Positions 741-47,356 of a stretch of 64,000 nt of DNA are shown in pieces (positions within the stretch are counted from its first letter, which is position 1; every line of letters begins with the position of its first letter). Origin of the DNA: an uncultured Planctomycetia bacterium (GTDB lineage: Bacteria > Omnitrophota > Gorgyraeia > JABMRG01); contig CAZWMG010000008.1 of the NCBI GenBank assembly GCA_964634945.1, forward strand, positions 268 to 64,267, in the 5' to 3' direction. The notes below the pieces were generated by a model. That model ran no database searches. It was not told the origin of the DNA and was given only the letters and a program-made list of their open reading frames with translations. Made by a program: the position numbers and the translations under genes.

Positions 741-2039
741 ATGAGAAAACTTATATTAATCTTACTATTGGCTATGGCCTGCGGGTTTTTAACTGTGCCG
801 GTATTTGCTAACAACGTGGCTGTTTCCGGTGTCAGCCTGCAAAATAAGGATTTAGGCGAAGGTACAATAGAGGTGAAGTTTACCTTAACCCAGGACAATA
901 CCTTTTCAGGCACAGACGACAACAGCGCGGCTTTTTATGACCGTATCTGGGTGTTCGTCAAATACTGGGTAGTAGGTTCAGACTCTGAAACAACCGGCTG
1001 GCACCACGCTACCTTGACTACAGGCGGCGCTGTTACGCCCACTTCTGACGGCATGGGCGCGTTCAGCTCAACAGGCGCGGACCAGGTTATCAAATGGTCA
1101 TATGTCACTGACAGTGTGGACCCTCAGAATACGGTAAAGGTTAAGGTCTGTGCTGTTGAAATGGTTTATATCCCCGCAGGTTCGTTTGTGTATAATTTAG
1201 CGGGCATAGGCGGTTCTACCTTTAATAACTACGGCGCAGGGTCACAGGTAACAGTTACCTCTGCCTCTGATATCCCCACAGGCGCCGCCGCAGGCTGGCC
1301 CAATGGTTATTCCGCGTTTTACATCGCCAAATATGAGGTCTCGCAAGGCCAGTACGCGGATTACCTTAATATGCTTTCAGCCTCAGATGCCGGCTCAAGA
1401 TATACAGATAATTACGACAGTTCCAGGCAGTCAGTCTCTTATACTTCAGGCAATGATTATGGCTCAAGGTACTCAGCAGGCAGGCCTGCCAGGGGCCAAA
1501 ATTACCTATCCTGGGATGACTGCAGGGCATATGCATCCTGGTGCGGGTTAAGGCCTTTAACAGAGATGGAGTTTGAAAAGGCAGGCAGAGGCGGCAGTAC
1601 AAGCAGTACCAATGTTTATCCATGGGGAGAGACCGCCCCCTCTTCTACTACTTATACGTTTGATGAGGCGACAATCAGCCAGTACTACGCCTGTTATAAT
1701 AATACATCAGCAGGCCCTACTGATGTGGGCCATTACCTGTCAGGTGATATAACCCGCACAGACGCCCAGGCAGGAGCCTCGGTTTATGGCGTTACAGACT
1801 TAAGCGGAAGCCTCTGGGAGCACCTGATAAACTGTGAGCATTTATCAGTGCCCTCTGATGGAAATGGTACCCTTACCTGGCCTATAAGTTGGCCGGACGC
1901 GGCATCAGGTAAGGGCATCCGCGGTGGTAGCTGGTACAGCGTTGCTACGCACTTGCGCGTGTCGGGCCGTGGCGGCGCTGGCAGCGCGTACGCGACTCGG
2001 AGCCACCATTTTGGGTTCCGCCCGGCCAGGACTCCTTGA
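741..2039 (+). CDS. DGR target protein 1: secreted protein with a C-terminal FGE-sulfatase/C-type-lectin-fold domain that carries the variable repeat
   Basis: Signal peptide MRKLILILLLAMACGFLTVPVFA, with an ATG at 741 behind the RBS-like aaaaagggg; the ORF track uses an upstream GTG at 732. FGE-family motifs are present: VEMVYIPAGSF, YIAKYEVSQGQY, RLPTEMEFEKAGRGG, YPWGE, GSLWEH, RGGSWYS and FGFRP. The last 126 nt are the variable repeat. Confidence 0.85.
   Translation: MRKLILILLLAMACGFLTVPVFANNVAVSGVSLQNKDLGEGTIEVKFTLTQDNTFSGTDDNSAAFYDRIWVFVKYWVVGSDSETTGWHHATLTTGGAVTPTSDGMGAFSSTGADQVIKWSYVTDSVDPQNTVKVKVCAVEMVYIPAGSFVYNLAGIGGSTFNNYGAGSQVTVTSASDIPTGAAAGWPNGYSAFYIAKYEVSQGQYADYLNMLSASDAGSRYTDNYDSSRQSVSYTSGNDYGSRYSAGRPARGQNYLSWDDCRAYASWCGLRPLTEMEFEKAGRGGSTSSTNVYPWGETAPSSTTYTFDEATISQYYACYNNTSAGPTDVGHYLSGDITRTDAQAGASVYGVTDLSGSLWEHLINCEHLSVPSDGNGTLTWPISWPDAASGKGIRGGSWYSVATHLRVSGRGGAGSAYATRSHHFGFRPARTP
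1913..2038 (+). repeat. DGR variable repeat VR1 (126 bp, ends at the target stop codon)
   Basis: Identical to VR2 at 5951-6076. Aligns without gaps to the TR at 6666-6791, with 16 mismatches at TR adenines and one non-A mismatch at the 3' end. Confidence 0.85.
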
Positions 2040-2105
2040 TGAGTTACACTTTGTTCTTTGAATTTTTTACGCTTTGGTTTTTATTTGGCAGGAAGCGGTG
2101 TTTAC

Positions 2106-2138
2106 GAGGGACGAGGGACGAGGGACGAAGAGACGAGG
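2106..2138. repeat. Tandem heptamer array GAGGGAC x3 (plus a degenerate GAAGAGAC GAGG) immediately upstream of the 2145 start codon
   Basis: The tandem is directly visible: gagggacgagggacgagggacgaagagacgagg. Confidence 0.5.
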
Positions 2139-2144
2139 TAAACG

Positions 2145-4286
2145 ATGAATAAGCGACTGATAATAACAGTAATCTTGACGGCAGCAGCAGCCATTACAGG
2201 CATCTGGCCTGTCTTTGCCGACCAATATACCGGCGGTACAGGTGACGGCTGGTCCGCAGCTGAATCCGCGGAGCTTGATATCGACGGGCCAGTAGTGGTT
2301 ATCTCAAGCGCCCAAAACCAGATATTCAAGGTGAGCGATTACAAAACCGCCGCAGCTGATATTACCATAACCGATTCTGCGGGAGGGGCTGTTACAGCTG
2401 CTAATGATATCAGGATTACAGTTCCTACTTCTTTTGGTGTGAAATGGAAGAGTTATTTTAGCGGCACTATCGATACTTCAGATGAGAACTTTGCCATCTT
2501 AAACCCAATAGCTGTATCAGCAAGCAATATAGACGTAACCACAGGCGCAGGCCCTTATATAATAGGTGATACTGTAACAGTAACCTGGGATAATACAGTA
2601 GCGACAGGAGACGGCGCAGGTACTGATAATGATGATGTGACAGGCGTGACATGTGATTTCTCATCAATGGAAGGCGGCGAAACAGTAACAATGTATGATG
2701 ATGGTACCAATGGAGGTGACGCTACAGCTGATGATGATATATGGACCGCAAGTTATGATATAACAGCAGGTACAGTAGATACAGCAACAGCCACAGTAGC
2801 TGTTACAGCTACAGACGGCACAAGCACAAAGACCACAGCAGACACCACAGACTTAACAGTAGATAACATAGTACCTGTATTAACAGATGGTAATATATCT
2901 ATTACATCAACCGGCTCAGGCACAGGAGGCGTTTACCTTGCAGGTGACACTGTCACAGCAGAGTGGGATGACACAGCTTCAGGCGATAACAACACAGATA
3001 CCATCTCAACAGTAACCTGTGATTTCTCTGCACTTGGTGGAGGAGCAGCAGTATCCATGACAGACTCCTCAGACACCTGGACAGCATCATATGATATAGA
3101 CAATACCTCAACCACAGGAACACACGCTGTATCATTATTAGCTACTGATAACGCGGGTAACACCACAACCACAGCAGATACAACAGACATTGAAGTAGGA
3201 GCAAGCACATTAACCCTAACATCTCCTGACCCCGGTACCACACACTCATTTAAGGCAGGTACTTCTCAAACAATAGCCTGGACAGCTGGGGGCGATACAA
3301 CAAGTGTTACCATCACTTATTCAACCAATTCCGGCGAAACCTATCCTAATACCATAACCACAGTAGCAAATTCCGCGGGAGCTAATTCCTATGATTGGAC
3401 AACAGCTTCCGATTTAAGCAGTAATGTGAGGATAAAATTGCATGACACTGATTGTTCCGCTGTTTATGACACATCGGATATTGATTTTACCATAGCCATC
3501 CCGACCCTGACTTTGTTAACGCCTTCAGCTTCAGGCATAACAATGTCCGTAGGTGACTCATATAATATTACATGGTCATCGGAAGGCGCGGTATCAGATG
3601 ACTTAAGCTTGTATTTTTCCACAAATTCAGGGACAGCTTACCCAGATACCATCTCTTCCTCAGAAGCAAATGACGGTACCTATACATGGACAGTACCCGC
3701 GGAAGCCGGGTCAGAGCTAAAAGTCAGGATACAGAATGTTTTTTATCAGGAATTGAACAATACCTCTGATGCTGATTTTGATGCCGGAACCGCTTCAAGC
3801 CTTACTGTTTCAGGCAGTGGAAGCAACGGAGCCCTTCAATTAGAAGATTATGTCTTAAGTTTTTCTCCTATGACTATTACGGATAATACAGGGGTCATTA
3901 CCGCGGCTAATGATATAAGAATAAGGATACCTTCTGCTTTTGGCATGACATGGAATACAGCGCATACTACAGCTGTTATTACAGGCAGCGCCGCGGGCAA
4001 GGTATCTACAGAAGTCAGTTACGAGTCTTCTGACAAGGTTTTAGTGCTGGATGTAATCTCGGACTTTACTGCCGGAGACGCTATTGTTGTTTCAGGGCTT
4101 GCTTTCAATAATCTTAGCGCTGTTTCATCATCGGATAATCTGGAACTGGATATATATAATACAGGGGCAACTTATATAACTGACAGCAATCATATTGAAA
4201 TTAAACCTGCTTCTTCCGCCTTGTTTATTGGCGGAACAGGTGATGGATGGGATTACGCGCAGAGCGCGGATCTGGTATTGGAGTAG
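2145..4286 (+). CDS. Secreted Thr/Asp-rich surface protein made of repeated beta-sandwich domains (713 aa)
   Basis: N-terminal signal peptide MNKRLIITVILTAAAAITGIWPVFA is followed by QYTGGTGDGWS, and the C-terminus ends FIGGTGDGWDYAQSADLVLE. Internal repeats recur (ITITDSAGGAVTAANDIRITVPTSFG ... MTITDNTGVITAANDIRIRIPSAFG) alongside YSTNSGETYP..Y.WT modules. The leader is paralogous to that of the giant gene at 8004. Confidence 0.7.
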   Translation: MNKRLIITVILTAAAAITGIWPVFADQYTGGTGDGWSAAESAELDIDGPVVVISSAQNQIFKVSDYKTAAADITITDSAGGAVTAANDIRITVPTSFGVKWKSYFSGTIDTSDENFAILNPIAVSASNIDVTTGAGPYIIGDTVTVTWDNTVATGDGAGTDNDDVTGVTCDFSSMEGGETVTMYDDGTNGGDATADDDIWTASYDITAGTVDTATATVAVTATDGTSTKTTADTTDLTVDNIVPVLTDGNISITSTGSGTGGVYLAGDTVTAEWDDTASGDNNTDTISTVTCDFSALGGGAAVSMTDSSDTWTASYDIDNTSTTGTHAVSLLATDNAGNTTTTADTTDIEVGASTLTLTSPDPGTTHSFKAGTSQTIAWTAGGDTTSVTITYSTNSGETYPNTITTVANSAGANSYDWTTASDLSSNVRIKLHDTDCSAVYDTSDIDFTIAIPTLTLLTPSASGITMSVGDSYNITWSSEGAVSDDLSLYFSTNSGTAYPDTISSSEANDGTYTWTVPAEAGSELKVRIQNVFYQELNNTSDADFDAGTASSLTVSGSGSNGALQLEDYVLSFSPMTITDNTGVITAANDIRIRIPSAFGMTWNTAHTTAVITGSAAGKVSTEVSYESSDKVLVLDVISDFTAGDAIVVSGLAFNNLSAVSSSDNLELDIYNTGATYITDSNHIEIKPASSALFIGGTGDGWDYAQSADLVLE

Positions 4287-4338
4287 TCCATAGTCCATAG
4301 TTGACGGTCAATAGTTGATAAGAACAGGAGAAAAGAAG

Positions 4339-4689
4339 ATGTTTAAGTTTGAGAAATTACAAGTCTGGCAAAAAGCGGTTGATTTTACCGCTGATATTCA
4401 TGGATTAAGCAGAAAATTCCCTAAAGAGGAATTATATATTCTAACAAGCCAGATTAAAAGAGCGGCGGATTCTATAGCCTTAAATGTAGCAGAAGGTTCA
4501 ACTGGACAGAGTAACAAAGGATTTCAACAGTTTATTGGTTATGCGATAAGATCAGCAATTGAGGTGGTACCCTGCCTTTTTGTAGGCAGAAAAAGAAAGA
4601 TTATAAGCGAAGAAGATTTTAATATGTTTTATAGCGACGCAGAAGAGATAGTTAAAATGTTACAAGGATTGCGTAACTCACTGGGATAG
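4339..4689 (+). CDS. Four-helix-bundle protein of the Avd / 23S rRNA intervening-sequence protein family
   Basis: MFKFEKLQVWQKAVDFTADIHGLSRKFPKEELYILTSQIKRAADSIALNVAEG matches the pattern of this four-helix-bundle family. An ATG at 4339 sits behind the RBS aggagaaaag; the ORF track starts at 4315, inside that RBS. Confidence 0.75.
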   Translation: MFKFEKLQVWQKAVDFTADIHGLSRKFPKEELYILTSQIKRAADSIALNVAEGSTGQSNKGFQQFIGYAIRSAIEVVPCLFVGRKRKIISEEDFNMFYSDAEEIVKMLQGLRNSLG

Positions 4690-4760
4690 TTTTTAGTTCA
4701 TAGGCTGTTGACTATCGACTATTGACTATCGACTTTGGACTAAAAAAGGAGGCAACCAAA

Positions 4761-6077
4761 ATGAGAAAACTTATTCGTATCTTGCTATTGACTATTGCCA
4801 TACTATGGACTGTTGACTATGGACTATCGACTGCAATAGCAAACGCCAACAACATAAGCGTGAGTAATACGGTGTTGCAGAACCAGGATGTGGAAAACTC
4901 TACTGTAGAGGTGAAATTTGACATTACATGGCAAAACTCTTTTTCCGATACAGACGGTAACGGCGCGGATTTTTATGACAGGGCATGGATATTTGTTAAA
5001 TACTGGGTGGTGGACGTGGACTCTGAAACAACCGGTTGGCACCACGCTACCTTGACTACAGGCGGCGCTGTTACGCCCACTTCTGATGGAAAAGGGGCAT
5101 TTGTTAATATCGGCGAAGACCAAACCGTAAAATGGAACTACGGCGCGGATGATATAACAGTTTCATCTAATGTAAGGGTGCGTCTTGATGCTGTTGAAAT
5201 GGTTTATATCCCCGCAGGTTCGTTTGTGTATAATTTAGCGGGCATAGGCGGTTCTACCTTTAATAACTACGGCGCAGGGTCACAGGTAACAGTTACCTCT
5301 GCCTCTGATATCCCCACAGGCGCCGCCGCAGGCTGGCCCAATGGTTATTCCGCGTTTTACATCGCCAAATATGAGGTCTCGCAAGGCCAGTACGCGGATT
5401 ACCTTAATATGCTTTCAGCCTCAGATGCCGGCTCAAGATATACAGATAATTACGACAGTTCCAGGCAGTCAGTCTCTTATACTTCAGGCAATGATTATGG
5501 CTCAAGGTACTCAGCAGGCAGGCCTGCCAGGGGCCAAAATTACCTATCCTGGGATGACTGCAGGGCATATGCATCCTGGTGCGGGTTAAGGCCTTTAACA
5601 GAGATGGAGTTTGAAAAGGCAGGCAGAGGCGGCAGTACAAGCAGTACCAATGTTTATCCATGGGGAGAGACCGCCCCCTCTTCTACTACTTATACGTTTG
5701 ATGAGGCGACAATCAGCCAGTACTACGCCTGTTATAATAATACATCAGCAGGCCCTACTGATGTGGGCCATTACCTGTCAGGTGATATAACCCGCACAGA
5801 CGCCCAGGCAGGAGCCTCGGTTTATGGCGTTACAGACTTAAGCGGAAGCCTCTGGGAGCACCTGATAAACTGTGAGCATTTATCAGTGCCCTCTGATGGA
5901 AATGGTACCCTTACCTGGCCTATAAGTTGGCCGGACGCGGCATCAGGTAAGGGCATCCGCGGTGGTAGCTGGTACAGCGTTGCTACGCACTTGCGCGTGT
6001 CGGGCCGTGGCGGCGCTGGCAGCGCGTACGCGACTCGGAGCCACCATTTTGGGTTCCGCCCGGCCAGGACTCCTTGA
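4761..6077 (+). CDS. DGR target protein 2: paralog of target 1 with a divergent N-terminal third and an identical FGE/C-type-lectin-fold C-terminus carrying the VR
   Basis: ATG at 4761 behind the RBS aaaggagg, followed by signal peptide MRKLIRILLLTIAILW. Nucleotides 5189-6115 appear identical to 1151-2077, and the last 126 nt are the VR. Confidence 0.85.
   Translation: MRKLIRILLLTIAILWTVDYGLSTAIANANNISVSNTVLQNQDVENSTVEVKFDITWQNSFSDTDGNGADFYDRAWIFVKYWVVDVDSETTGWHHATLTTGGAVTPTSDGKGAFVNIGEDQTVKWNYGADDITVSSNVRVRLDAVEMVYIPAGSFVYNLAGIGGSTFNNYGAGSQVTVTSASDIPTGAAAGWPNGYSAFYIAKYEVSQGQYADYLNMLSASDAGSRYTDNYDSSRQSVSYTSGNDYGSRYSAGRPARGQNYLSWDDCRAYASWCGLRPLTEMEFEKAGRGGSTSSTNVYPWGETAPSSTTYTFDEATISQYYACYNNTSAGPTDVGHYLSGDITRTDAQAGASVYGVTDLSGSLWEHLINCEHLSVPSDGNGTLTWPISWPDAASGKGIRGGSWYSVATHLRVSGRGGAGSAYATRSHHFGFRPARTP
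5951..6076 (+). repeat. DGR variable repeat VR2
   Basis: gggcatccgcggtggtagctggTacaGcgTtgctacgCac... compared with the TR shows substitutions (capitals) only where the TR has A, apart from a G/C difference in ccagGact versus ccagCact. Confidence 0.85.
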
Positions 6078-6126
6078 TGAGTTACACTTTGTTCTTTGAA
6101 TTTTTTACGCTTTGGAAAAAGCTCGT

Positions 6127-6474
6127 ATGAGTCAGACAACGCCTATAGTAAGTAAGACCTATGATTTTATTCTTTGGGTTTTACCGAAATTGGCAAAATT
6201 TCCCAAAGACCAAAGGTTCTTGCTGGGAGACAGGATTGAAACAACGTTGCTTGATTGTCTGGAGCTTTTGATTGAAGCAGTATATTCTAAGGAAAAAAGG
6301 AAGGTGTTAAGAGATGTTAACCTTAAACTTGAAAAATTACGGTTTTTATGGCGAATCAGCCGCGATATGCGCTATACCCCTCTCAGAAGCTATGAGTTTG
6401 GCGCGAGAAGTATTAATGAGATTGGTAAAATGGCAGGCGGTTGGATTAAGAGTGAATTACGCCGGAGTCTCTGA
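6127..6474 (+). CDS. avd: DGR accessory variability determinant (Avd), a basic four-helix-bundle protein
   Basis: It occupies the canonical position between target/VR and TR. The motif KTYDFILWVLPKLAKFPKDQRFLLGDRIETTLLDCLELLIEA matches the Avd family, and the protein is small and basic. The ATG at 6127 is preferred over the TTG at 6112 used by the ORF track. Confidence 0.75.
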   Translation: MSQTTPIVSKTYDFILWVLPKLAKFPKDQRFLLGDRIETTLLDCLELLIEAVYSKEKRKVLRDVNLKLEKLRFLWRISRDMRYTPLRSYEFGARSINEIGKMAGGWIKSELRRSL

Positions 6475-6665
6475 GTTTACGGATTCAGAGAGAGGCGCTT
6501 TTGATAAGGAGTCCAGGCCTTGTTTCCCGGCTCAGAAACCTAAGCCAAAAACATCGGAGTACCTTGCGCAGGTAGTAGCGGAAATCAGCGAACCTTGCGC
6601 AGGAAAAAGAAAAAACGTCCTTGATTTAAGAATGTTTAAGGATGGGCGCAAGGTCGAAAAAAGCC

Positions 6666-6791
6666 GGGCATCCGCGGTGGTAGCTGGAACAACGATGCTA
6701 CGAACTTGCGCGTGTCGGACCGTAACAACGCTGGCAACACGAACACGAATCGGAACAACAATTATGGGTTCCGCCCGGCCAGCACTCCTTG
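6666..6791 (+). repeat. DGR template repeat TR (non-coding, rich in AAC codons)
   Basis: 126 bp collinear with both VRs. The sequence aac aac gat gct acg aac ... aac aac gct ggc aac acg aac acg aat cgg aac aac aat tat is adenine-rich exactly at the positions where the VRs vary. The overlapping ORF 6314-6901 is therefore spurious. Confidence 0.85.
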
Positions 6792-6913
6792 TCAAGAGCG
6801 GGAAACAACGTTGTCATTCTGAGCCCGTAAGGCCGAAGAATCTAAATACTGGATTCTTTACTTCGTTCAGAATGACAAGGGAAAAAGCGCTCAGAATGTG
6901 ACAAGAAGATAAA

Positions 6914-7957
6914 ATGAAAACTTACAAGCATTTATTTGAAAAGATTACGAGTTTTGAAAACTTACTGCGCGCCGCAAAACAGGCGCAGAAGGGCAAGAAG
7001 ATGAAACACAATGTTAGTGAGTTCAACTTTGGATTAGAAAGCGAAATCCTAAAATTGCAGGATGAGCTTAAGAACCAGGCCTACAGGCCCGGCCGATATA
7101 GGCATTTTTATGTTAATGACCCTAAGCGCAGGCTAATTTCTGCCGCGCCTTACAGAGACAGGGTCGTGCATCATGCCTTTTGTAATACTATAGAGCCGTT
7201 ATTTGACAGGACTTTTATATTTGACTCTTACGCTTGCCGTGTTGGAAAAGGAACGCATAAAGCTATGAGCAGGTGTCAGGAATTTATAAAGAAAAACAAA
7301 TATGTTTTACAGTGTGATATAAGCAAATACTTTTCATCTATTAACCATGGGGTTTTACTTTCTATTCTTTCCCGAAAGATTAGGGATAAAAAAGTGATGT
7401 GGCTGGCAGAGCTTATTATTAATTCAGCATTAACTGTTAATGGCTTAACAGGCATTCCTATAGGTAACCTGACAAGCCAGTTTTTTGCTAATCTTTATCT
7501 TAATGAGCTGGACTATTTTGTGAAGTTTGACTTAGGTGATAAGTGTTATCTTCGCTATATGGATGATTTCCTGATATTTAGCGAAAATAAACAGCATTTA
7601 CATCAAGCTAAAGAAAAAATTAACCAATTCTTAGAAAGCTTTTTAAAGCTTAATTTGCACCCCAAAAAATCATCGGTATTACCCATAAACTTGGGTGTAG
7701 ATTTCTGTGGTTTCCGGATTTTTAAATATTTACGTAAATTGCGAAAAAGCAATATAATGTTTTTTAAAAAAAGAGCCGTAAAGATGCAGAGAGATTTTTG
7801 CAGGCAGAAAATTAATATAAATAAAATTTCTCAATCTATAAGGGCTTGGGTCGCCCACGCTAACTGGGGAAATACTTATAGGTTGCGCGAAAAAGTAATG
7901 GAGAATTTAATTTTTAGCAGAAGTTATATGAGTACAGAAGATCGGTCTAACAGGTAA
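6914..7957 (+). CDS. DGR reverse transcriptase
   Basis: RT motifs are present in order. The DGR-specific IGNLTSQFFANLYLNELD (I/LGxxxSQ) stands in place of the group II intron QGxxxSP, and the catalytic motif is YMDDFLIF. The gene lies directly downstream of the TR. Confidence 0.9.
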   Translation: MKTYKHLFEKITSFENLLRAAKQAQKGKKMKHNVSEFNFGLESEILKLQDELKNQAYRPGRYRHFYVNDPKRRLISAAPYRDRVVHHAFCNTIEPLFDRTFIFDSYACRVGKGTHKAMSRCQEFIKKNKYVLQCDISKYFSSINHGVLLSILSRKIRDKKVMWLAELIINSALTVNGLTGIPIGNLTSQFFANLYLNELDYFVKFDLGDKCYLRYMDDFLIFSENKQHLHQAKEKINQFLESFLKLNLHPKKSSVLPINLGVDFCGFRIFKYLRKLRKSNIMFFKKRAVKMQRDFCRQKININKISQSIRAWVAHANWGNTYRLREKVMENLIFSRSYMSTEDRSNR

Positions 7958-8003
7958 ACCGGCTAACAGGTTAACCGGCTAACCAGTAGATGAGAGGTTA
8001 AAA

Positions 8004-11000
8004 ATGAATAAGCGACTGATAATAACAGTGATTTTGACAGTAGGAGTAGCCATTACAGGTATCTGGCTTGCCTTTGCGGATCAGTATACAGGCGGCGCAG
8101 GTGATGGCTGGAGTTATTCCCAGTCTCAAGATCTTCAAATGACAGGGCCTGATGTTATTTTTACTTCAGCCGAGGGCAGTGTTGGCCGTTTGGGCCAGGT
8201 GCCTTCAGGTTATTTTATTTCCGATGTTTTGGATACCAATGGCAATTCTACTTTAGGCGTCTTAAGCTGGATAGCGGATTTATCCGCGGGCGGTGAGATA
8301 AAGTTCCGAATAGCGGGCAGTGACGACAACATCACCTGGACCGATTATTTAGGCCCGGACGGCACAGCCGGAACTTATTTTACCTCTTCAGGGGAATCTA
8401 TCCCATCCGCGTTAGATGCTAAGCGTTATTTAAGATACAAGGCCTATCTTACAACAGCAGATTACACGCCTGTTTTAGACAGCGTAAGCATACAGTTTGC
8501 GGATGATAATGAAGCAAAAAGAATAATAAGTGATACCTCTGATAATAATTTTACTATCCAGACAGCCTCTATTGTTACTGCCGATGTTGAGCCTGTAAGC
8601 CTTGTAGCCGGCGTAACAGGAACTGTGGTTGTCTCGTTTACTTCTATTAACCCTATCCCCGCGGATGGCAGCATAGAGGTAACATTCCCAGTAGAATTTG
8701 ACGTAAGCGCGGTAGGAGATACCGCTTCATCATCAACAATGGACGGCTCATTAACAGTAACCGTATCAGGACAGGTGATAACTATTACCCGCAGCGGCGG
8801 TAGTGAGCAGCCGGTTGCATCAGAAAGTTTAACCTTAACCAACATTAAGAATTCCAATACTTCCGGCATAACAGGGACATACCAAATAAAGACTATTCGT
8901 TCTGACGGAAACATTATTGATGAAAAAACAGATGTTTCAGCGTCAACTATTGTATCAGCAGCTACAGCAAGTGTAACGCTTAATGCTCCTGATGATATTA
9001 CAGCAGGAGGAGCAAGAGCGGCCTATACTGTCACTCGTTATGATGAGTTTAGTAATTTAAATGATCAGGGAGCTGAGACATTCTATCTATATACTACATC
9101 ACAAGGACAGAATGTTGGGTTCTATGATGTTGTTTCCGGAGGAAGCGCGGTTACAAGCATAGATGTTGCTGATGGCACATCAGAATCTGATTTCTGGTAT
9201 TATGATGAGTTGATGGGTACATTTACTAATACTATTTCAGAGATCAATTCCGGCGCTGTATATGATGTAGGAGATAGTAGTAGTACAGATTTTGGAGATG
9301 GCACAGCATCTGGTATTGCGGTTTCAGGCTCAGGTTCTAGTGCTGAATTGGCCCTTTTAGCGAAGAACCGTTGTGGGGTGGTTTATGCAACAGATGGAAT
9401 ATATGATACCCCAGGAACTGCTAGAGGCGTTTATGTTTCCGGAAACTACGCTTATGTGGCTGATGATACGAGTGGCTTAAAAATTATTAATATCTCTAAT
9501 CCAGATTTGCCAACTCTAACTGGGACGTATGGTACTGTTGGTAATGCTCGTGGTGTTTACGTCTCCGGCGACTACGCTTATGTTACTAATCAGATTGCCC
9601 TTGAAATTATTGACATCTCCACCCCCTCTTCACCAACCTTGACTGGGAGATACGACACGTCCGGTATGCCAGTAAATGTTCATGTTCTTGGTGATTATGC
9701 CTATGTAGCTGACTGGGGTAGTGGACTTCAAATTGTTGATATCTCTACACCTTCTTCACCAAGTTTGGCAGGAACATGTGATAGTACTCGTGCAGCAGAT
9801 GTCTGTACCTCCGGTAACTATGCTTATGTTGCAGACGATACAAGCGGACTTCAAATTATAGATATTTCAAATCCTGCTTTACCTACCATTGTAGGAACTT
9901 ATGATACTGCTAATAAGGCAACTTGTGTTTATGTTTCCGGAAACTACGCTTATGTGGGTGATTATCAAGATGACTTGGTAGTTATTGACATCTCTAATCC
10001 TTCTTTGCCAAGCCTAGTCGCAACTGTTAATACTACCGGTGAGCCTAACAGCCTATATATTTCAGGTGATTATCTCTATGTTTCCGATTATTATAGAGAT
10101 GTAAAAATAGTAGATATTTCAACCCCATCTTCTCCTTTTGTAGCTACATTAGTAAAAACTGATTCAAATTATCCCCGAGGTGTTTTCGTTGCTAATGATT
10201 ATGTCTATGTAGCTGATGGTACAAGTGGTTTGCGCATCAAGGATATGACAGATTTGACGCCACCTTCTATCATTACATCTTATGATACTTCCAGTAATGC
10301 CTGGGACGTATGTGCTCTAGGTGATTATGTCTATGTAGCGGATGCGGGACATGGCCTGAAAATTATTGATATCTCTACACCTTCTTCACCAGTTTTAACT
10401 GGAACATATGATACGTCTAGTGACGCCCATGGTGTTTATGTTTTATCCGATTATGCCTATGTAGCGGATGGTTCAAATGGCCTCCAAATCATAGATGTTT
10501 CCAGCCCAGCATCGCCAACAAGGACTGGGACCTGTGATACTCCCGGTGACGCACAAAAGGTCTATCTATCTGGCAACTACGCCTATGTTGCTGATGGTTA
10601 TAGTGGTTTACAGGTGATTGATATTTCTGATTTGTCGTCGCCAACCCTAACTGGAACATATGATACTCCTGGTTTTGCCAGAGATGTTTATGTTTTAGGT
10701 GATTACGCTTACGTGGCCGATAATAGCTCTAGTGGTTTACAGATTGTTGATATTACTGATCCATCTTTGCCGAGTGCTGTTGGGTCGTATAATATTAATG
10801 ATGAGGCCCACGGTGTTTATGCCTCCGGCAATTATGCTTATGTAGTTTTTAATGGCGCAGGTTTGCATATTATCGATGTTTCCACGCCTTCTTTGCCGAC
10901 ATTAACTGGAGCGTACGATACTTCTGGCTATGGCAGAGGCGTTTATGTCTCTGGTAACAATGCTTATGTGGCAGATGATGCAAACGGTTTACAGATTATC

Positions 11001-14000
11001 GATATCTCTAACCCAGCCTTACCAGTCTTGGTGGGCATTACGGAAACTCCGGGTAGTGCCAGGGCAGTTTATATTTACGGTATTTATGCCTACGTTGCTG
11101 ATTGGAATTTTGGAATTGTCATTACTGATATTTCAGGCTATTCTTCTTCCGGCACATTTGCATCACGTATCATGGATAGCGCATCAAATGAAACATTTAG
11201 CACTGCTTCCTGGAATGGCGTTGTTCCAGCTGATACTACCTTGACTATCAAGGCCCGCACTTCTGATGATTCAGCAATGAGCGGAGCAACTGATTGGGCG
11301 AGCTGTTCAGAGCTTACAAGTGGTCAGGATATATCAGATGCAACCGGAGTAACAGACACAGATAGGTATATTCAATACTATATTGAGATGGCAACGAGTG
11401 ATGTAACAGCTACCCCGTCTCTAAGTGATATTGCATTTGATTATAGCCGCTCAGCTACAGGTGGTATCTATGATACAGATAGTCTAAATGTTAAACATGC
11501 TGCTTCGAATAAGATAGCATTTACAACAGATATCACAACTCCTCAGAAAGCAGGCGCTGTATTTACTCTGCCGGCTATCAAGGCATTGGATACATATGGT
11601 AATTTATTAAATAATGACTATGGCGCCTCTGCCTATGCAGAGACTATCACAATCAGTTACGCGCTAAGTGGCGCCTCTGATGCCCCGGATGATAATGGAA
11701 CAGACTCGTTTACTACCAATGTAGCCTTTGCCAATGGTGCGTCCACCACCTCTTTAAGTACTATTCTATACAGGGCGCAGGATACAACCGTAACTCCTTC
11801 AACAGAAGCTGCGGGATTAACGGGCCAGACAACAGAGTCTAATTCTATAACAGTAAATCCTGAAACAAAGAACAAGGTAGTATTTACGCAAGAGCCGTCC
11901 GCGACAGGAAAGATAAATTATCCATTGGATACACAGCCTATAGTTGTGATACAGGATGTTTATGGTAACCAGACAGCTGATACAGACGCGATAACTCTGT
12001 ATGACTCGAGTTCAAATGAGGTATATATGGATGCAAGCGGTACATTGTCAGCAGCATCCAATCCTTTATCAGCTACTGATGGACAAGCGGAATTCAGCAA
12101 CCTGGAATACAGTTTGCCAGGTTCTATATATCTGTATGCCGAAACCGCAGGTATTGACGCGGACTTTTCACAGCAGATAGCGCTATCAGTATCATCAACT
12201 TCTACGGTTGATGCGGCGGCAACGCCAGCGCCTGATTTTGATCTTGTACCGACTAATGATGATATAGACCATAGCTTTACTGTATTGAAGTTTAAGATTA
12301 CAGACGCGGGAGTAGATGATACCCCAACCTTGATAGACAGGATAAAGGTAGCCATATCAGGCACAGGCGCAAGCGCCGCTACTGACATAACCTGGGCAGG
12401 CCTGTATATAGGCGAGACCCAAATCACCACTGTTACAGGTGAGGCTATAGCAAATGATTATATAACATTCGGCACTCTTCCGGATGGCGATTCTAACGCT
12501 GACCTTTACAGCTTAGCTGATAACACATCCGAAGAATTTACAGTTTATATTTATATGAAAGACGGAAAACTTACAGCAACAGAGGATGATACATATATCT
12601 TTGATGTTGATGAGACATTGATAGGAGTAGATAGCGGGTTATCGTCTCAAATGGCATCCGATTCCGCAAGCGTAACTCCGGTTACAGGGACCATAGATGT
12701 TACAATCTCTTATATAGAGGCTGTAACGGCTGCCGGAAATGAAGATGTTGAATTAACAGCAGGTATTGGTAATGATATAAAGCTTCGCGGTGTTGATGTT
12801 AATAAGAACGTAGATGAGGATTATATAGGTAACCAGACATTTAAGTTCTCAGGCCTGAACCAGATAGGAGTCTATAAACCTAAGACAGACGCTACTGTAT
12901 TTGGAAACAACAAGACCATTAGTTTTACAGCAGGTGTCTCAGCGACAACGACTCTTACTGCTTACGCAAAAGAGACAGGTACTCTATCAGCCCAGGACCA
13001 GAATCACCTATCTTATGAAACATACGCGCTAAATGTTACTACTGTAGCTGCACAGGGTGATAGTATAGTTCTTACAAGCGGTAACAACCAGTCCGGCGCG
13101 ATAAACGCGGTATTATCACAGGAGTTTATAGCTACTGTATCTGATGCTTATGCAAACCCTGCCACGGGTGAGGTTGTTGAATTTGCGGTAGATACAGCCC
13201 CTAATGGAGCAAGCGGCCAGAGCCTGAGCCAGCCGCAGGATGACACTGACGATGACGGCTTGGCATCTGTTCTCTTTACTCTGGGCAATGTAGCGGGAGA
13301 CTATTTGATTACCGCAACTTGCGGTAGCATAACAGGGTCTCCATTGACTTATACCGCGACAGCTTTAGAGCCTACAGGACTAAATATAGCAAGCGGCAAT
13401 AATCAGGTTGACAAAAAGGTTGCAGAGGATCTTAATCCTTTTGTTGTGGAACATACAGCCTCCGGCGATATACCTGTTCCTAACGTGGATATTGATTTTG
13501 AGATTATAAGTTTTCCTGATGGGGCTACCGGACAGTCATTGTCAGCGTCAAGCGCTACAACCAATTCAAATGGCCAGGCGACGGCCACCCTTACCCTTGG
13601 CACGAAGATAGGCAGTTATGTTGTGCGCGCTAGTGTTGGAGCGTTTAGTGTTGATTTCACAGCGACCGCTCTTCCTGAGACGCCTAATAAAATAATACTT
13701 TCAGGCCCTAGTTCCGTAGCGGCAGGAGGCGTATCAGAAAGCTTTTCAATATATATAAAGGATACATATGATAATTTAAGCGGCGTAACAAGCGCCACCA
13801 CAATTGGTGCGTCGAGTAGCGCAAGCGCTACATCAAGCTTTTATAGCGACTCGCTCGGTGAAAGCCTTCTCGTAGATGATAGTATATTGTTAAGCATTGA
13901 TACCCATAGCGCTACTTTCTATTACAAGGACACGCTGGTTGGCGTTCCGACAGTTACGGTATCTGTAACGAGCGGACAGGCAGGACTGAATACCGATAAT

Positions 14001-17000
14001 AATAATTCCGGTATCAGTGTTATACCGGGTGGCATACATAGCTTTAAGGTTACAGGTTCAACATCGGCTATGGTTGTCGGAGGAAGCCGTGAGATTACCG
14101 TAACAGCGTATGATGTCCATGATAACGTAAAGACCAATTATAATGGTGATATAAATGTAATATTCTCAGGCGTTGCAGTCTCTCCATCTGCTCAAGCTCC
14201 AACATGTTCTGATAAGGATTCAAATGATATAGCTGTTGGCAGTTCAACTACACTTACATTCTCATCAGGCGTTGCCACAACCACTCTAAAGCCTTATAAG
14301 GCAGAGGAAGTTGCAATAAAGGCTACAGCAGGTGCTGTTACAACAGCTTCTGATAGTGACCTTGAATTTGTTGTGCGCCACGGCGCGCACGACCACCTAA
14401 AATTCGCCGCTAATCTGCCTACTCCGCAGATAGCAGGTAGTGAATTTACATTAGAGACCACCATTGATGTTGTTGATATCTATGCAAATGTATGCGATGG
14501 CGCGAATGGCGCCACTGCATATGCTCAGACAGACAAGACTGTCACATGGACTCTAAGCGGCGAAGCTAACGGCCCCTTAAGCGGAACAGATACATTTACA
14601 AATCCTATTTCATTTAGCGCTGGGCATTCAGTGAATACCTTAATCGCTACTTTATACCGCGCTCAGAATACTACAATAACTCCAAGTGTTGTTGGTCTAA
14701 GCGGAACTAATGAGGCATCCAATACAGTAGTTGTTGCAGGAGGAGAGGTTAATAAGATCCGATATACGCAGCAGCCTTCAGCTACATGTATTACTACTCA
14801 AGCCCTGGCTCAACAGCCGCATGTAGCAATATCTGATGCGTATGGTAATGATGTAATATCAGCAGAAGGAAATATCTCTTTGGCAGCATCAACAACAACC
14901 GGCACATTTACACCTGTTGCAAACGGCACCTTAAGTGCCGCGTCATTGAGTTTAGCGCTGTCATCAGGCGCGGCGGACTTTAGCGAAGTAACCTATAACT
15001 ATCCTGAGAATATCTATATAAGAGCCTCAATATCCGGATATGAGCTGAATAATATCTATTCTTCATTAATAGCCTTCTCAACCGCTGATGAGGCTACTAT
15101 ATCAGCAGGGGCACTATCAGAGCCTTCATCTATCTCATCCTTGTCTGATAACGTGCTTGAGTTAACAGACGTCTTTGATTTTAAGGTTACTGACGGCGGG
15201 ACAGATGGGTATGCTACAAAGGTAAAACAGATAGTTATTACTCAGTCGGCGAATAACACAGCTGAAAGCTGGACAGACTATATCCAGGGCGCGTATATAA
15301 CAGACGGCACAACACAGATATTAGCTATTGTTGAAGAGACAATGCTTGTATTTGGAAGTGGATCAAGTATTATTTATTCTATAAGCAATGGCAGTCATAA
15401 GACATTTACATTGAAGGTATATCTAAAACCCACATTGCCGGCAGGAGCTGATGGCAAGGTAATCGGTTTTAGCGTTGATGCCGATACTTATATAGTTTTA
15501 CATAATTTGAGCTCGCAATTCCCTACAACCTCACCTCTTAGCACAGAGCCTGAGGTAGCTGTTGTGGCTACTAATTTTACGGTTACAGGTGACGCTACAA
15601 TGCTTGCGGGGACTTCAAATACGCTTACCCTGACAGCCGTAGATGCTAATGGCAACAAGGATAAGGATTATACGGGTGATAAGGCATTAGTCTTTAGCGG
15701 AGCTAATGTGTCAACAAATGGAAATAACCCTACGTGCACTTCATTTAGCGGTGCGGATATTGATTTTGCTGACAATACGATAATTACGTTTGTCGATGGA
15801 GTTAACTCATCGACTATTACCATGAAGCTTTATAAAGCAGAAACAGTTTCTGTAAGAGCAGGAGACGGGACACTGGTTACCGCATTAGCTGACGCTCTTC
15901 AGGTTACGGTTTCAGGTGGTACAGCATCAGACCTTCTATGGGGTACCGAACCCGGAACAGTCGCCGTGGCCAATGCGCCATGGAAGGAATTTACTGTAAA
16001 TGTCACTGATGCTTATGGTAATATCGCCTCAAGTGACGCTGATGTGACTATCAGTGCATCGGGTGGGACATTGGCGGATTCTGCTACAGCAGTAGTTGCC
16101 GCGTCATCAGGTGTCGCGACCTTCAGGAATTTTGCTGTTACATGTTCAAGCTATCCAGGTATAGTAGAGATTACAGGCGAATCAGACGGGGTAACGCCAA
16201 CACCGGCATCTAGTTCTGTAACTGTCGCGGAGAAATATTCAGTAACAGTCAATGTCAATGATTATACGAGTGGTGCAGCCCTTACGGAGCTTGCGTTTGA
16301 TCTTCTCTCAGACGCTGGTGTTACAATGTCTAGTGAAGGATTCCCAATGACCGGAAACAGCCCGTTTGAGTTTGAGTTGCCTTATGGCACATATACATTG
16401 TCATTCGAAAAAGAACAATATATGGCACACAGCACAGAGAAGATAGCTGGAGTGGCTGCCGATGCACTCGATGGAACATATGATAACGATATAAGCTGGA
16501 CAGTTATAGTATCATCCTTAGCAGAGGCTACGGCAGATTATAATGTAAAGAGCGGTATTACCTATGATGAGACTACCGATAGGCTTACTCTGCGTCTCTG
16601 GATTGAAAAGCGCGGCAAGATGATACTTAATGATGACGTAAATAAGCTGGGCCCTGCTACTATTGAAATTTATGACGATGCGACTTCTCAATGGCTAAGC
16701 GCTATAAGCCTTACACCGCCTAGCTTAACGAATACGACATCAGGCCTATATTACAAAGTTGTCAGTAACGTTAGCAGTGGAGGCACACCGGCACTAGTCG
16801 AGGGAAAGACATACTTTGCCAGTTGTAAGATAAATTATGGCGGCCTTGACGGAACAGGCAGGCTTTATGAGGGCGGCACGACATTTGCTCTTACTGTAAG
16901 CCAGAGTCTAAAGGCCGTAACTGAAGGCATTGAAATCATGACCGATGATATCAAGGCTGAGGTAACAGGGGTTACGCAATCAGTATCTGATCAGGCTGCC

Positions 17001-19067: not shown

Positions 19068-19988
19068 ATGGATGTTTCTGACCTGATTAGAAAAGGCAAG
19101 ATTAGCAGGTTATTTCGCGCCAGGAATAAGATCAGTTTTCCCGACGCGATATGTCATATTACCCAGCATGCCGCAGGAAAGGAAAAATTATTTTCAGAAG
19201 ACTCAGATTATTTGTACATGCTGCACCTTCTCAAGGCAGTAGCAGAGAAGTATAAAATCGATATTTTTTCTTTTGCCTTTCTCCCCAACCACTTACACAT
19301 CTTGCTTCAATTATCAGACGACAATCTCTCTTTGGCGATGAAAAGCCTGTTTGAGAGCTATGCTAAGTTTTACAATAATAAATATAACAGGAAAGGCCAT
19401 TTATTCTGCGGCTCATTCAGGCAGGCCCTCTGTTTTAGCGATAGTTATCTTTTGGCCATATCTTTGTATATACACATAAATGCTGTTAAGGCAAGGCTGG
19501 TTAATCGGCCTGAGGATTACCGCTGGTCATCCTGCGCGTTATATTCATCCGCTTTTAATAAAAAGACATTTGTTAACTATAAATTCATTCTAGAGAGCCT
19601 GGATGAGGATTTGGCAAACGCGCGAAAGATCTATTCTGCATTATTGCGTAGCTCAGAAAAGGTAAAAACAGAAGAGGTTAGGGTAGATATCAGGGCATTG
19701 GAATCTTTTAAAACAAGGGCAATGGAGTTTTTTCCGGCTTTAGTAAAGCGTACAGGCAGAGATGCCCCAGGTTTTTTAGAAGATGAGAAATTAGAGGAAG
19801 CGGTGTTGCAATTAAGGCAGATGGGAAGGTTGTCTACTCCTGAGAGCTTTACAGCGCGCAAGAATTTGATTGAGCAACTGAAGGCAAGAGGCTATACAAT
19901 AAAGGTTATAGGCCAAATGCTGGGCATATCCAGACAAGCGATATACAAGACGCTTAAGTTGACAAATTCTGCAATGCACAAAATGTAA
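19068..19988 (+). CDS. REP-associated tyrosine transposase (RAYT; IS200/IS605-like Y1 HUH transposase domain) with a C-terminal HTH extension
   Basis: HUH motif in LPNHLHILL. Family pattern YNRKGHLFCGSFRQ....YIHINAVKARLVNRPEDYRWSS carries the catalytic Tyr. The C-terminal GYTIKVIGQMLGISRQAIYKTLK is a helix-turn-helix. The gene is flanked on both sides by REP-like palindromes. Confidence 0.7.
   Translation: MDVSDLIRKGKISRLFRARNKISFPDAICHITQHAAGKEKLFSEDSDYLYMLHLLKAVAEKYKIDIFSFAFLPNHLHILLQLSDDNLSLAMKSLFESYAKFYNNKYNRKGHLFCGSFRQALCFSDSYLLAISLYIHINAVKARLVNRPEDYRWSSCALYSSAFNKKTFVNYKFILESLDEDLANARKIYSALLRSSEKVKTEEVRVDIRALESFKTRAMEFFPALVKRTGRDAPGFLEDEKLEEAVLQLRQMGRLSTPESFTARKNLIEQLKARGYTIKVIGQMLGISRQAIYKTLKLTNSAMHKM

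Positions 19989-47269: not shown

Positions 47270-47356
<87 letters not shown>

Follow-up and report, generated by a model that had tools for sequence, protein, structure and literature searches.

The window analysed here is a stretch of 64,000 nucleotides from contig CAZWMG010000008.1 (assembly GCA_964634945.1) of an uncultured bacterium. It carries a diversity-generating retroelement (DGR), in which a template repeat (TR), a reverse transcriptase (RT) and the accessory variability determinant Avd are found together with variable repeats (VRs) in two target genes. The following features make up the element:

741-2039, + strand: target gene 1, 432 aa, with signal-like N-terminus, beta-sandwich domain and FGE/CLec domain
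1913-2038, + strand: VR1, in target 1, 4.7 kb upstream of the TR
4761-6077, + strand: target gene 2, 438 aa, PF03781, immediately upstream of avd
5951-6076, + strand: VR2, C-terminus of target 2, 19 mismatches to the TR
6051-6076, + strand: 3' end of VR2 (GGGTTCCGCCCGGCCAGGACTCCTTG), resembling an initiation of mutagenic homing (IMH) site; same sequence in VR1 at 2013-2038
6127-6474, + strand: avd, 115 aa, pI 9.9, between target 2 and the TR
6666-6791, + strand: TR, 126 nt with 32 adenines
6914-7957, + strand: DGR reverse transcriptase, 347 aa (PF00078, E 4e-23)

The order target-avd-TR-RT is that of architecture B1 (Wu et al. 2018, PMC5758913), here with a second target 4 kb upstream. We hold a chromosomal DGR of this layout to be the correct reading of the locus with a probability of about 95%.

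TR and VR2 were aligned without gaps. They are collinear with an offset of 715 nt and their homology ends abruptly on both sides. Eighteen of the 19 mismatches are at adenines of the TR (10 A>G, 4 A>T and 4 A>C), and the sole exception is a C>G exchange (TR 6783, VR 6068). With 32 adenines in 126 nt, a bias of at least 18 out of 19 has a hypergeometric p of 2.8e-12. In the reading frame of the VR, the TR comprises nine AAC and two AAT codons, and all substituted codons contain adenine. When every A of the TR was replaced by N and the window was searched with this pattern, three matches were obtained, namely the TR, VR2 and VR1, with none expected by chance. VR1 is 100% identical to VR2 in the window. 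The homology of VR2 terminates within the stop codon of target 2 (TGA, 6075-6077) and VR2 spans the last 42 codons of the FGE-sulfatase domain (PF03781). An earlier note on this DNA, made from the letters alone, had described a complete DGR with collinear TR and VR, a TR made of AAC codons, a single C/G difference near the 3' end and a VR that ends at the stop codon, and it had alluded to a second VR. All of this agrees with the family tests and with the tabulation of mismatches by TR base. The adenine-specific pattern of the note also stands, while its number of mismatches (16 at A plus one other) has to be raised to 18 plus one.

The IMH-like end of the VR is GC-rich and invariant across the three VR haplotypes described below, and it differs from the TR only in G6068 versus C6783. 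It has the composition of an IMH/IMH* pair, with a GC-rich GGGTTCCGCCCGGCC followed by AG[G/C]ACTCCTTG, and the IMH role was assigned from sequence. This one G/C difference is fixed in all copies of the VR and recurs in the relatives L006, L007, L009 and L028 (L numbers are our labels for contigs and loci used for comparison).

Among solved structures, the RT matched best to the bRT of phage BPP-1 (8ub7, E 5.2e-53, residues 2-325), with the best group II intron RT structure well behind (6e-27). The motifs GIPIGNLTSQ and YMDD are both present. A global alignment to bRT showed that the equivalents of R74, I181 and Q187 and of the catalytic D138, D215 and D216 are kept, residues that belong to the template and dNTP site of bRT (Handa et al. 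2024, 10.1101/2023.10.23.563531). There is no DGR-RT model in NCBIfam. An assignment as group II intron or retron RT was rejected because the group II, retron and DRT models remained below their cutoffs and a TR/VR pair and Avd are present. The exact RT protein was found in at least three Logan contigs, of which one occurs in 11 samples. Avd was recognised by the NCBI equivalog model NF033474 DivGenRetAVD (114.6 bits, cutoff 80) and by PF22296 bAvd (E 2.7e-19, 70.1 bits, cutoff 40), while its sequence search against the PDB gave no match. Thus, the DGR-type RT with IGNLTSQ and YMDD and the basic Avd gene between target and TR, both postulated in the earlier note, were recovered by profile and structure searches.

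Target 1 contains the FGE-sulfatase domain PF03781 (E 4e-22) and is identical to protein P0002 from the NCBI contig of 70,003 bp to which the window belongs; target 2 is 100% identical to P0001. An AlphaFold model of target 2 (54 homologues, pLDDT 89, pTM 0.88) consists of an N-terminal helix, a beta-sandwich domain and an FGE-type lectin fold, with CalU17, FGE and EgtB as top Foldseek matches. Model and Pfam match are in accordance with the proposal that the VR lies in a C-terminal FGE/C-type-lectin-fold domain. The hydrophobic N-terminal helix, ending in ANA, suggests that the target proteins are secreted. No separate avd, TR or RT belongs to target 1, which is located 4 kb upstream of target 2 and outside positions 4761-7957 described in the earlier note. 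A gene for a 713-aa surface protein lies directly 3' of target 1. Several or non-adjacent targets per TR occur in about 15% of DGRs, and FGE-sulfatase/CLec1 is the largest class of DGR targets with 19% (Wu et al. 2018, PMC5758913). The TvpA-type DGRs of Treponema denticola likewise have a C-terminal VR in an FGE-sulfatase-type C-type-lectin fold (FGE-sulfatase/CLec1, category 'b'). The Treponema element contains an HRDC accessory gene (architecture C), whereas the window has Avd (architecture B1), and TvpA was not among the listed sequence or fold matches of the targets.

The 5' thirds of the two target genes are only about 75% identical. The remainder belongs to a perfect direct repeat, which was delimited with a base-by-base identity map:

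1151-2077, + strand: repeat copy A, 927 bp
5189-6115, + strand: repeat copy B, 927 bp

The repeat comprises the 3' two-thirds of the target gene, including the lectin domain and the VR, and extends 39 nt beyond the stop codon. Independent retrohoming could not yield two identical VRs; their identity reflects duplication or conversion of the segment as a whole, or possibly assembly collapse. Most plausibly, the 927-bp segment was duplicated or underwent gene conversion, and this genotype has seen no retrohoming since. If it were an assembly artefact instead, a collapsed graph edge would have been traversed twice, the real VRs would differ and perhaps even the whole second target would be spurious. 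Short-read assemblies do break exactly at the repeat boundaries (L001, L087 and L089); Logan contig L001, for instance, starts 30 nt ahead of the repeat end, where a break is expected if a k=31 graph branches at this point. Moreover, VR1 and VR2 are different in other samples. On the other hand, Logan assembled the 927-nt repeat with its VR from run SRR8146440 as one clean, separate unitig identical to the window (L089), which is unexpected if two VRs were present at similar depth and favours a real VR identity in that population. The divergent 5' parts of the targets (~75% identity) and the flanks are each confirmed by independent contigs, L086 joins the repeat to the 713-aa gene, L090 joins VR2 to avd, and two paralogous targets are likewise present in each locus of the closest relative. 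An artefact is hence considered unlikely. As VR1 and VR2 have diverged in other samples, their identity in the window appears to be due to a recent conversion or to assembly collapse, or to be a clonal snapshot. Exact-sequence look-ups of the full-length target proteins returned no record, the 295-aa fragment encoded by the repeat had no cluster in the protein collection, and a homologue search with the C-terminal 159 aa for fragmentary VR variants of the same organism yielded distant proteins only.

Contigs of the same organism were recovered from Logan assemblies of other sequencing runs via exact-protein look-ups. L086 (SRR31802794, 3,916 nt) corresponds to positions 1151-5066 of the window. 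It showed 23 differences between 1917 and 2011, all 23 at TR adenines, while the ~3.8 kb outside VR1 were identical. L090 (SRR31802792, 1,607 nt) corresponds to positions 5955-7561 and showed 27 differences, all of them within 5955-6049 and 26 at TR adenines; the exception is the second base of the contig (T>G). In L090, avd, TR, the spacer with its insertion and the 5' end of the RT gene are identical to the window, and the TR is the same in L001. Pooled over the three VR haplotypes, 57 A>N substitutions, one fixed C>G and the one T>G at the contig end were counted. Substitutions in at least one haplotype affect 28 of the 32 TR adenines, and the four never substituted include the two nearest to the TR 3' end (6781 and 6784). 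Both targets are diversified in nature, with VR1 and VR2 each differing between samples at TR-adenine positions. VR-restricted variation at adenine positions, which the earlier note had named as the observation to look for, is thus seen at both targets between independent assemblies (49/50 differences). Relatives display the same pattern. In the two closest protein clusters at 90% identity (74-75% identity to the targets, 13 members each), ~400 residues are essentially invariant with a single substitution in one cluster as exception, and variation is otherwise limited to the last ~40 residues, at codons with A in the TR. In ~40 related RT loci, TR/VR mismatches are exclusively or almost exclusively at adenines.

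Some observations weigh against a functional DGR at this locus. A GC-rich hairpin or cruciform was not found after VR1 or VR2 (z = -0.3 and +0.8 for 86-nt DNA folds). In BPP-1, a hairpin 3' of the VR is required for efficient homing. Such a downstream GC-rich hairpin is found in 34% of DGRs and is absent in about two thirds (Wu et al. 2018, PMC5758913). VR1 equals VR2 in this assembly, an identity that an active element would not keep for long. The VR variation was seen between assemblies and not inside one population, and a scan of JGI metagenome and GTDB genome contigs with the TR pattern (A->N) detected 0 VR variants. Taken to its extreme, this would mean a decayed and inactive relic with fossil TR/VR differences, in which nothing has happened since the duplication, as the 100% match between VR1 and VR2, which are part of a perfect repeat of 927 bp, and the missing cruciform-type hairpin might suggest. 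Given the fact that two other runs have base-identical flanks but different VR1 and VR2, with 49 of the 50 differences at TR adenines, a relic is highly improbable. In addition, L090 has a different VR2 beside the same TR-RT spacer with its insertion, and RT, Avd and TR are intact with all catalytic and mutagenesis residues kept.

The region around the TR was analysed for structured RNA and the following elements were identified:

6461-6497, + strand: hairpin R1 with 3-bp outer helix, internal loop, 10-bp stem and UACG tetraloop; overlaps the avd stop codon
6504-6516, + strand: primer-like strand AUAAGGAGUC followed by an invariant CAG (6514-6516); covariation in 25 loci
6517-6654, + strand: multi-helix RNA domain closed by 6517-6522 with 6649-6654; hairpins 6529-6546, 6563-6603 and 6616-6644
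6784-6790, + strand: TR 3' end ACUCCUU, pairing with 6506-6512 (AAGGAGU); proposed template strand of a template:primer duplex
6811-6878, + strand: nested palindromic hairpin in the TR-RT spacer (spacer fold z = -5.4)

The gap of 191 nt between avd and TR is highly conserved with relatives. Its first element, R1, pairs 6468-6477 with 6482-6491 around the tetraloop at 6478-6481. Seven of eight pairs showed compensatory changes (RNAalifold), pairing was kept in 89.6% of alignment cells compared to 37-60% for slid partners, and none of 500 shuffles reached the score. A covariance model of R1 detected ~45 further related loci, where its matches lie upstream of the RT start and on the RT strand in nearly all cases, and 5' of the TR in all loci with a mapped TR. 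Weak matches downstream of the RT were obtained in more distant loci from Acidobacteriota and others (L070:1606-1643, L106:4159-4196 and L112:4159-4196), which hints at a third arrangement of the RNA module.

The duplex of 6506-6512 with the last 7-8 nt of the TR was 92.2% paired across 25 loci, compared to 41-55% for slid partners. Six of its eight pairs were compensatory and 0/500 shuffles reached the score. In other subgroups, this duplex is formed by AGAGGUU:AACCUCU, GGAAGUC:GACUUCC, AUUGUC:GACAAU, CAUAGUC:GACUAUG or GGAGGUC:GACCUCC. The upstream strand, including 6513, is also fully complementary to the IMH end of the VR (8 bp including G6068), while it forms a C:C mismatch with C6783 of the TR. 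The closing helix of the multi-helix domain starts directly after the CAG and ends 11 nt before the TR, and it encloses two or three hairpins in the folds. It was 94.7% paired (18-57% for slid partners) with compensatory changes in 6/6 pairs, and again no shuffle out of 500 scored as high.

The gap of 122 nt between TR and RT consists mostly of the palindromic hairpin at 6811-6878. This insertion is absent from the close relatives L005, L006 and L007. Similar palindromes were observed at the equivalent TR-RT site in L052, L061 and L065. The hairpin is probably an element similar to miniature inverted-repeat transposable elements or repetitive extragenic palindromes and located outside the core of the DGR. 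It was rejected as Avd-binding stem-loop because of its absence in close relatives and its resemblance to palindromic insertions elsewhere. The recurrent insertion of palindromes fits with a TR-RT gap that lies outside the functional RNA. Insertion-free close relatives have TR-RT gaps of 19-53 nt. Throughout the clade, the gap is about 150-330 nt between avd and TR and 19-50 nt between TR and RT unless a similar palindrome is inserted. In more distant loci organised like BPP-1 (L062, L081 and L082), avd and TR are 11-20 nt apart and TR and RT 166-190 nt.

The DGR of BPP-1 (mtd-avd-TR-brt) has the same order of target, avd, TR and RT as the window. The two RTs are 34% identical and share the catalytic and adenine-mutagenesis residues, and both elements possess an Avd family protein, a TR of 126-134 nt with AAC codons, a VR at the C-terminus of a C-type-lectin-fold protein and a GC-rich IMH-like end with a TR/VR discriminator. 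The window element differs in being chromosomal and not phage-borne, in its FGE-type instead of Mtd-type target, in having two targets and in the missing hairpin after the VR. It further differs in its gaps. In BPP-1, the avd stop codon abuts the TR (gap of 0 compared to 191 nt), and the spacer (Sp) between TR and brt is 144 nt long, compared to 19-53 nt in the insertion-free relatives, and matches the Rfam model Phage_DGR at 104.7 bits. These sizes place the structured RNA 5' of the TR in the clade of the window and 3' of it in BPP-1.

In the BPP-1 ribonucleoprotein (RNP), Avd binds to the stem-loop Sp3-33 with 11 bp and a UNCG loop, and TR117-129 forms a template:primer duplex with Sp47-56, in which A56 of GGUGGUCA56G is the priming nucleotide (Handa et al. 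2024, 10.1101/2023.10.23.563531). Two nucleotides further on, Sp59-70 pairs with an avd segment that ends 8 nt before the TR ('cPRT Stop'), followed by a small hairpin with adenosines, a single-stranded 'thumb ring' and a bRT-binding stem-loop (same reference). The Avd-binding stem-loop of BPP-1 contains ...GCUACGGC... in its sequence. The upstream module of the window has the same elements in the same order with two adjacent duplexes, but 5' and not 3' of the TR. Common submotifs are the UACG-capped hairpin, ...GUCAG and a duplex involving the sequence immediately 5' of the TR. The primer strand resembles GGUGGUCA56G of the BPP-1 Sp and the Phage_DGR consensus GUGGUCAGC, and the internal loop of hairpin 6563-6603 (GUAGUAGC...GCGAAC) resembles GAGUAGC...GCGAAA of that consensus. 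In L081 and L082, which have the BPP-1 layout, CUGCAAAGUUUACGGACUUGCAG, then ...AAGUCAG and then AUUAACUGCC are located downstream of the TR, and AUUAACUGCC pairs with GGCAGUUAAU, 16 nt upstream of the TR.

By analogy with BPP-1, R1 is proposed to be the equivalent of the Avd-binding stem-loop and 6517-6654 that of the avd:Sp 'cPRT Stop' duplex plus RT-binding elements, with A6515 as candidate priming nucleotide. The TR/VR difference at 6783 borders the proposed template:primer duplex on its inner side, at the expected start of copying, which would explain why it is not transferred to the VRs. It is somewhat more probable than its alternatives taken together that the DGR RNA of this clade is a circular permutation of the BPP-1 RNA with a spacer-like module between avd and TR. 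The clade comprises metagenome-assembled genomes (MAGs) of Omnitrophota, Elusimicrobiota and Planctomycetota, in which about 65 loci were found. The module would contain a hairpin of the UACG Avd-binding type, the primer strand with CAG, the strand of the 'Stop' duplex and hairpins of the RT-binding type. The RNA could then end right after the TR, and the new ends would be at the junction of TR 3' end and hairpin. With both duplexes kept, the same three-dimensional RNP would be possible, and cDNA would be primed from A6515 upstream of the template. A literature search, whose coverage is incomplete, returned no description of a permuted DGR RNA. At the gene level, the architecture is canonical; what is new here is the permuted RNA, if it holds.

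The RNA between avd and TR could also be a regulatory leader or a processing signal for TR/RT expression, in which case the priming elements would be found downstream, overlapping the RT coding sequence. This is possible but rather doubtful. The pairing of one module strand with the very 3' end of the TR, supported by covariation, speaks against a leader, as does the next helix, which pairs with the segment just 5' of the TR and produces the same geometry of two adjacent duplexes as in the BPP-1 RNP. The order of the module, the UACG hairpin and UCAG motifs and the TR-RT gaps of 19-50 nt fit with a permuted Sp as well. A leader would be consistent with the link to BPP-1 being made via sequence and structure analogies only and with the Rfam result, as RF03022 Phage_DGR had no match in window positions 5900-7000 even at E up to 1. 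The RNA-structure analysis covered the stretch ahead of the RT coding sequence, whose 5' region is where such a reading would place the priming elements.

Among the Rfam models, RF02921 RT-14 aligned over its full length to 6456-6603 with 30.2 bits (E 0.02-0.07), which is below its gathering score of 48.1 bits, a threshold that none of 19 related loci reached. RT-14 and the window share a hairpin with UA(A/C)G loop and a single strand rich in A and G, as well as a small hairpin, a run of A and a long hairpin whose internal loop is UAGUAGC...GCGAA. The model contains neither the closing helix nor the TR pairing and the match is a resemblance only. RT-14 was described as a candidate structured RNA near RT genes without assigned function, and the 'RT' motifs near RT genes were speculated to belong to DGRs (Weinberg et al. 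2017, PMC5737381). A scan of the window at Rfam gathering thresholds detected one tRNA only, and a scan for promoters and terminators remained at chance level.

In the proposed mechanism, the avd-TR region would be transcribed and the TR RNA would be reverse-transcribed by RT and Avd with misincorporation opposite adenines, as in BPP-1. Again by analogy to BPP-1, the cDNA would take the place of the homologous VR in the 3' end of one or the other target gene, guided by the common GC-rich IMH-like end. Up to about 19 codons, mostly AAC and AAT, would be rewritten on the ligand-binding face of a secreted protein with FGE/C-type-lectin fold.

The closest relative is locus L005 (ENA ERZ27316330 k141_477839), and the same organism is represented in L004, L006 and L007. 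Its targets are 74-75% and its RT is 78% identical to those of the window, and it has the same Avd and avd-TR intergenic RNA. In both loci, the targets alternate with large surface proteins with a MNKRLIITVILT... N-terminus. L005 comprises two full tandem cassettes, with target-avd-TR-RT, a 706-aa gene and again target-avd-TR-RT (L005:4721-13168), and its two TRs differ, each matching its own VR. The window lacks one of these cassettes, and its two targets have a common 3' segment that matches one TR. Judged from these sequences, the arrangement of the window looks like the loss of one cassette plus homogenisation of both target 3' segments to the remaining TR. The IVP gene described below and the palindromic insertion are present in the window and absent in the relative. 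The second RT of L005 has ATA instead of ATG as start codon and an insertion of ~30 aa, and its cognate VR is still hypervariable across samples (P0003 cluster); the first RT may serve the second TR in trans. In the related Omnitrophota DGR loci L093 and L098, c-di-GMP-I riboswitch aptamers (RF01051, 64-66 bits) were observed at L093:28-105 and L098:196-273, ~2.5 kb upstream of the RT and probably ahead of a target gene. No c-di-GMP-I riboswitch was found in the window.

The DGR is located in a chromosomal context with genes for an F-type ATP synthase, type II secretion or type IV pili, GlnRS and thiamine synthesis and with an IS200-like transposase. A phage origin was rejected because of these housekeeping genes. 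Named homologues of targets and RT are mostly from Candidatus Omnitrophota MAGs, followed by Elusimicrobiota and Planctomycetota, and the host is probably an Omnitrophota bacterium. The further features near the DGR are as follows:

666-697, 2225-2256, 4223-4254 and 8084-8115: Y(I/T)GG(T/A)GDGW(D/S) motif
4284-4304 (- strand), 4708-4742 (+ strand) and 4806-4833 (+ strand): TNGACTA arrays, the last one in the signal-peptide codons of target 2
4339-4689, + strand: four-helix-bundle gene of the TIGR02436/PF05635 '23S rRNA IVP' type (PF05635 E 1.5e-33, TIGR02436 E 9e-31)

Inverted arrays of the heptamer TNGACTA (9 matches compared to 0.28 expected) lie on both sides of the IVP-type gene, and gene and arrays together look like a small inserted cassette. 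Proteins of the TIGR02436/PF05635 family occupy the Avd position in the related DGR loci L038 and L041. From this family relationship to Avd, the product of 4339-4689 is possibly, though uncertainly, a second accessory protein.

Directly 3' of the RT, a giant secreted protein of 3367 aa is encoded (8004-18107), and a giant homologue follows the DGR in L004 and L005, too. It contains ~13 tandem repeats of 126 nt (42 aa; 9395-11106) of the YAYVAD..GLQIIDIS type, similar to LVIVD/beta-propeller repeats. The conserved Y(I/T)GG(T/A)GDGW(D/S) motif directly follows the N-terminal anchor MNKRLIITVILT... in the 713-aa and 3367-aa surface proteins. The 713-aa protein and the partial upstream protein also have it at their extreme C-termini, and L005 shows the same placement of the motifs. 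The matching head and tail motifs might mediate head-to-tail assembly of surface proteins. Near-repeats of 7-8 nt (TAACAGG TAAACCGG CTAACAGG TTAACCGG CTAACCAG) run from 7943 to 7990 across the RT stop codon, and similar short-period repeats are present in the spacers of L038 and L041. The IS200-like Y1 transposase, with a helix-turn-helix domain, is encoded 1 kb downstream of the giant gene (19068-19988), and the single tRNA is at 47273-47356 on the minus strand.

Tens of thousands of DGRs have been catalogued, and as a DGR alone the locus adds little. It is a clean example from nature in which two paralogous genes for surface proteins are served by one TR, with activity demonstrated at both through base-perfect flanks in other, independent samples. 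The lineage is thought to live attached to other cells and the locus adjoins giant surface proteins; the targets may have a role in attachment to other cells. The comparison with the nearest relative would illustrate how tandem DGR cassettes merge by recombination or gene conversion. If the permuted RNA is true, it would be a second architecture of the DGR ribonucleoprotein RNA and would give the orphan motif RT-14 a function. About a quarter of Avd-type DGRs have no downstream Avd-binding hairpin (Handa et al. 2024, 10.1101/2023.10.23.563531), and a permuted RNA would explain them. For those who engineer DGRs for directed evolution, it would further indicate the RNA segments required in this large environmental clade, and it would be of real interest to retroelement specialists.

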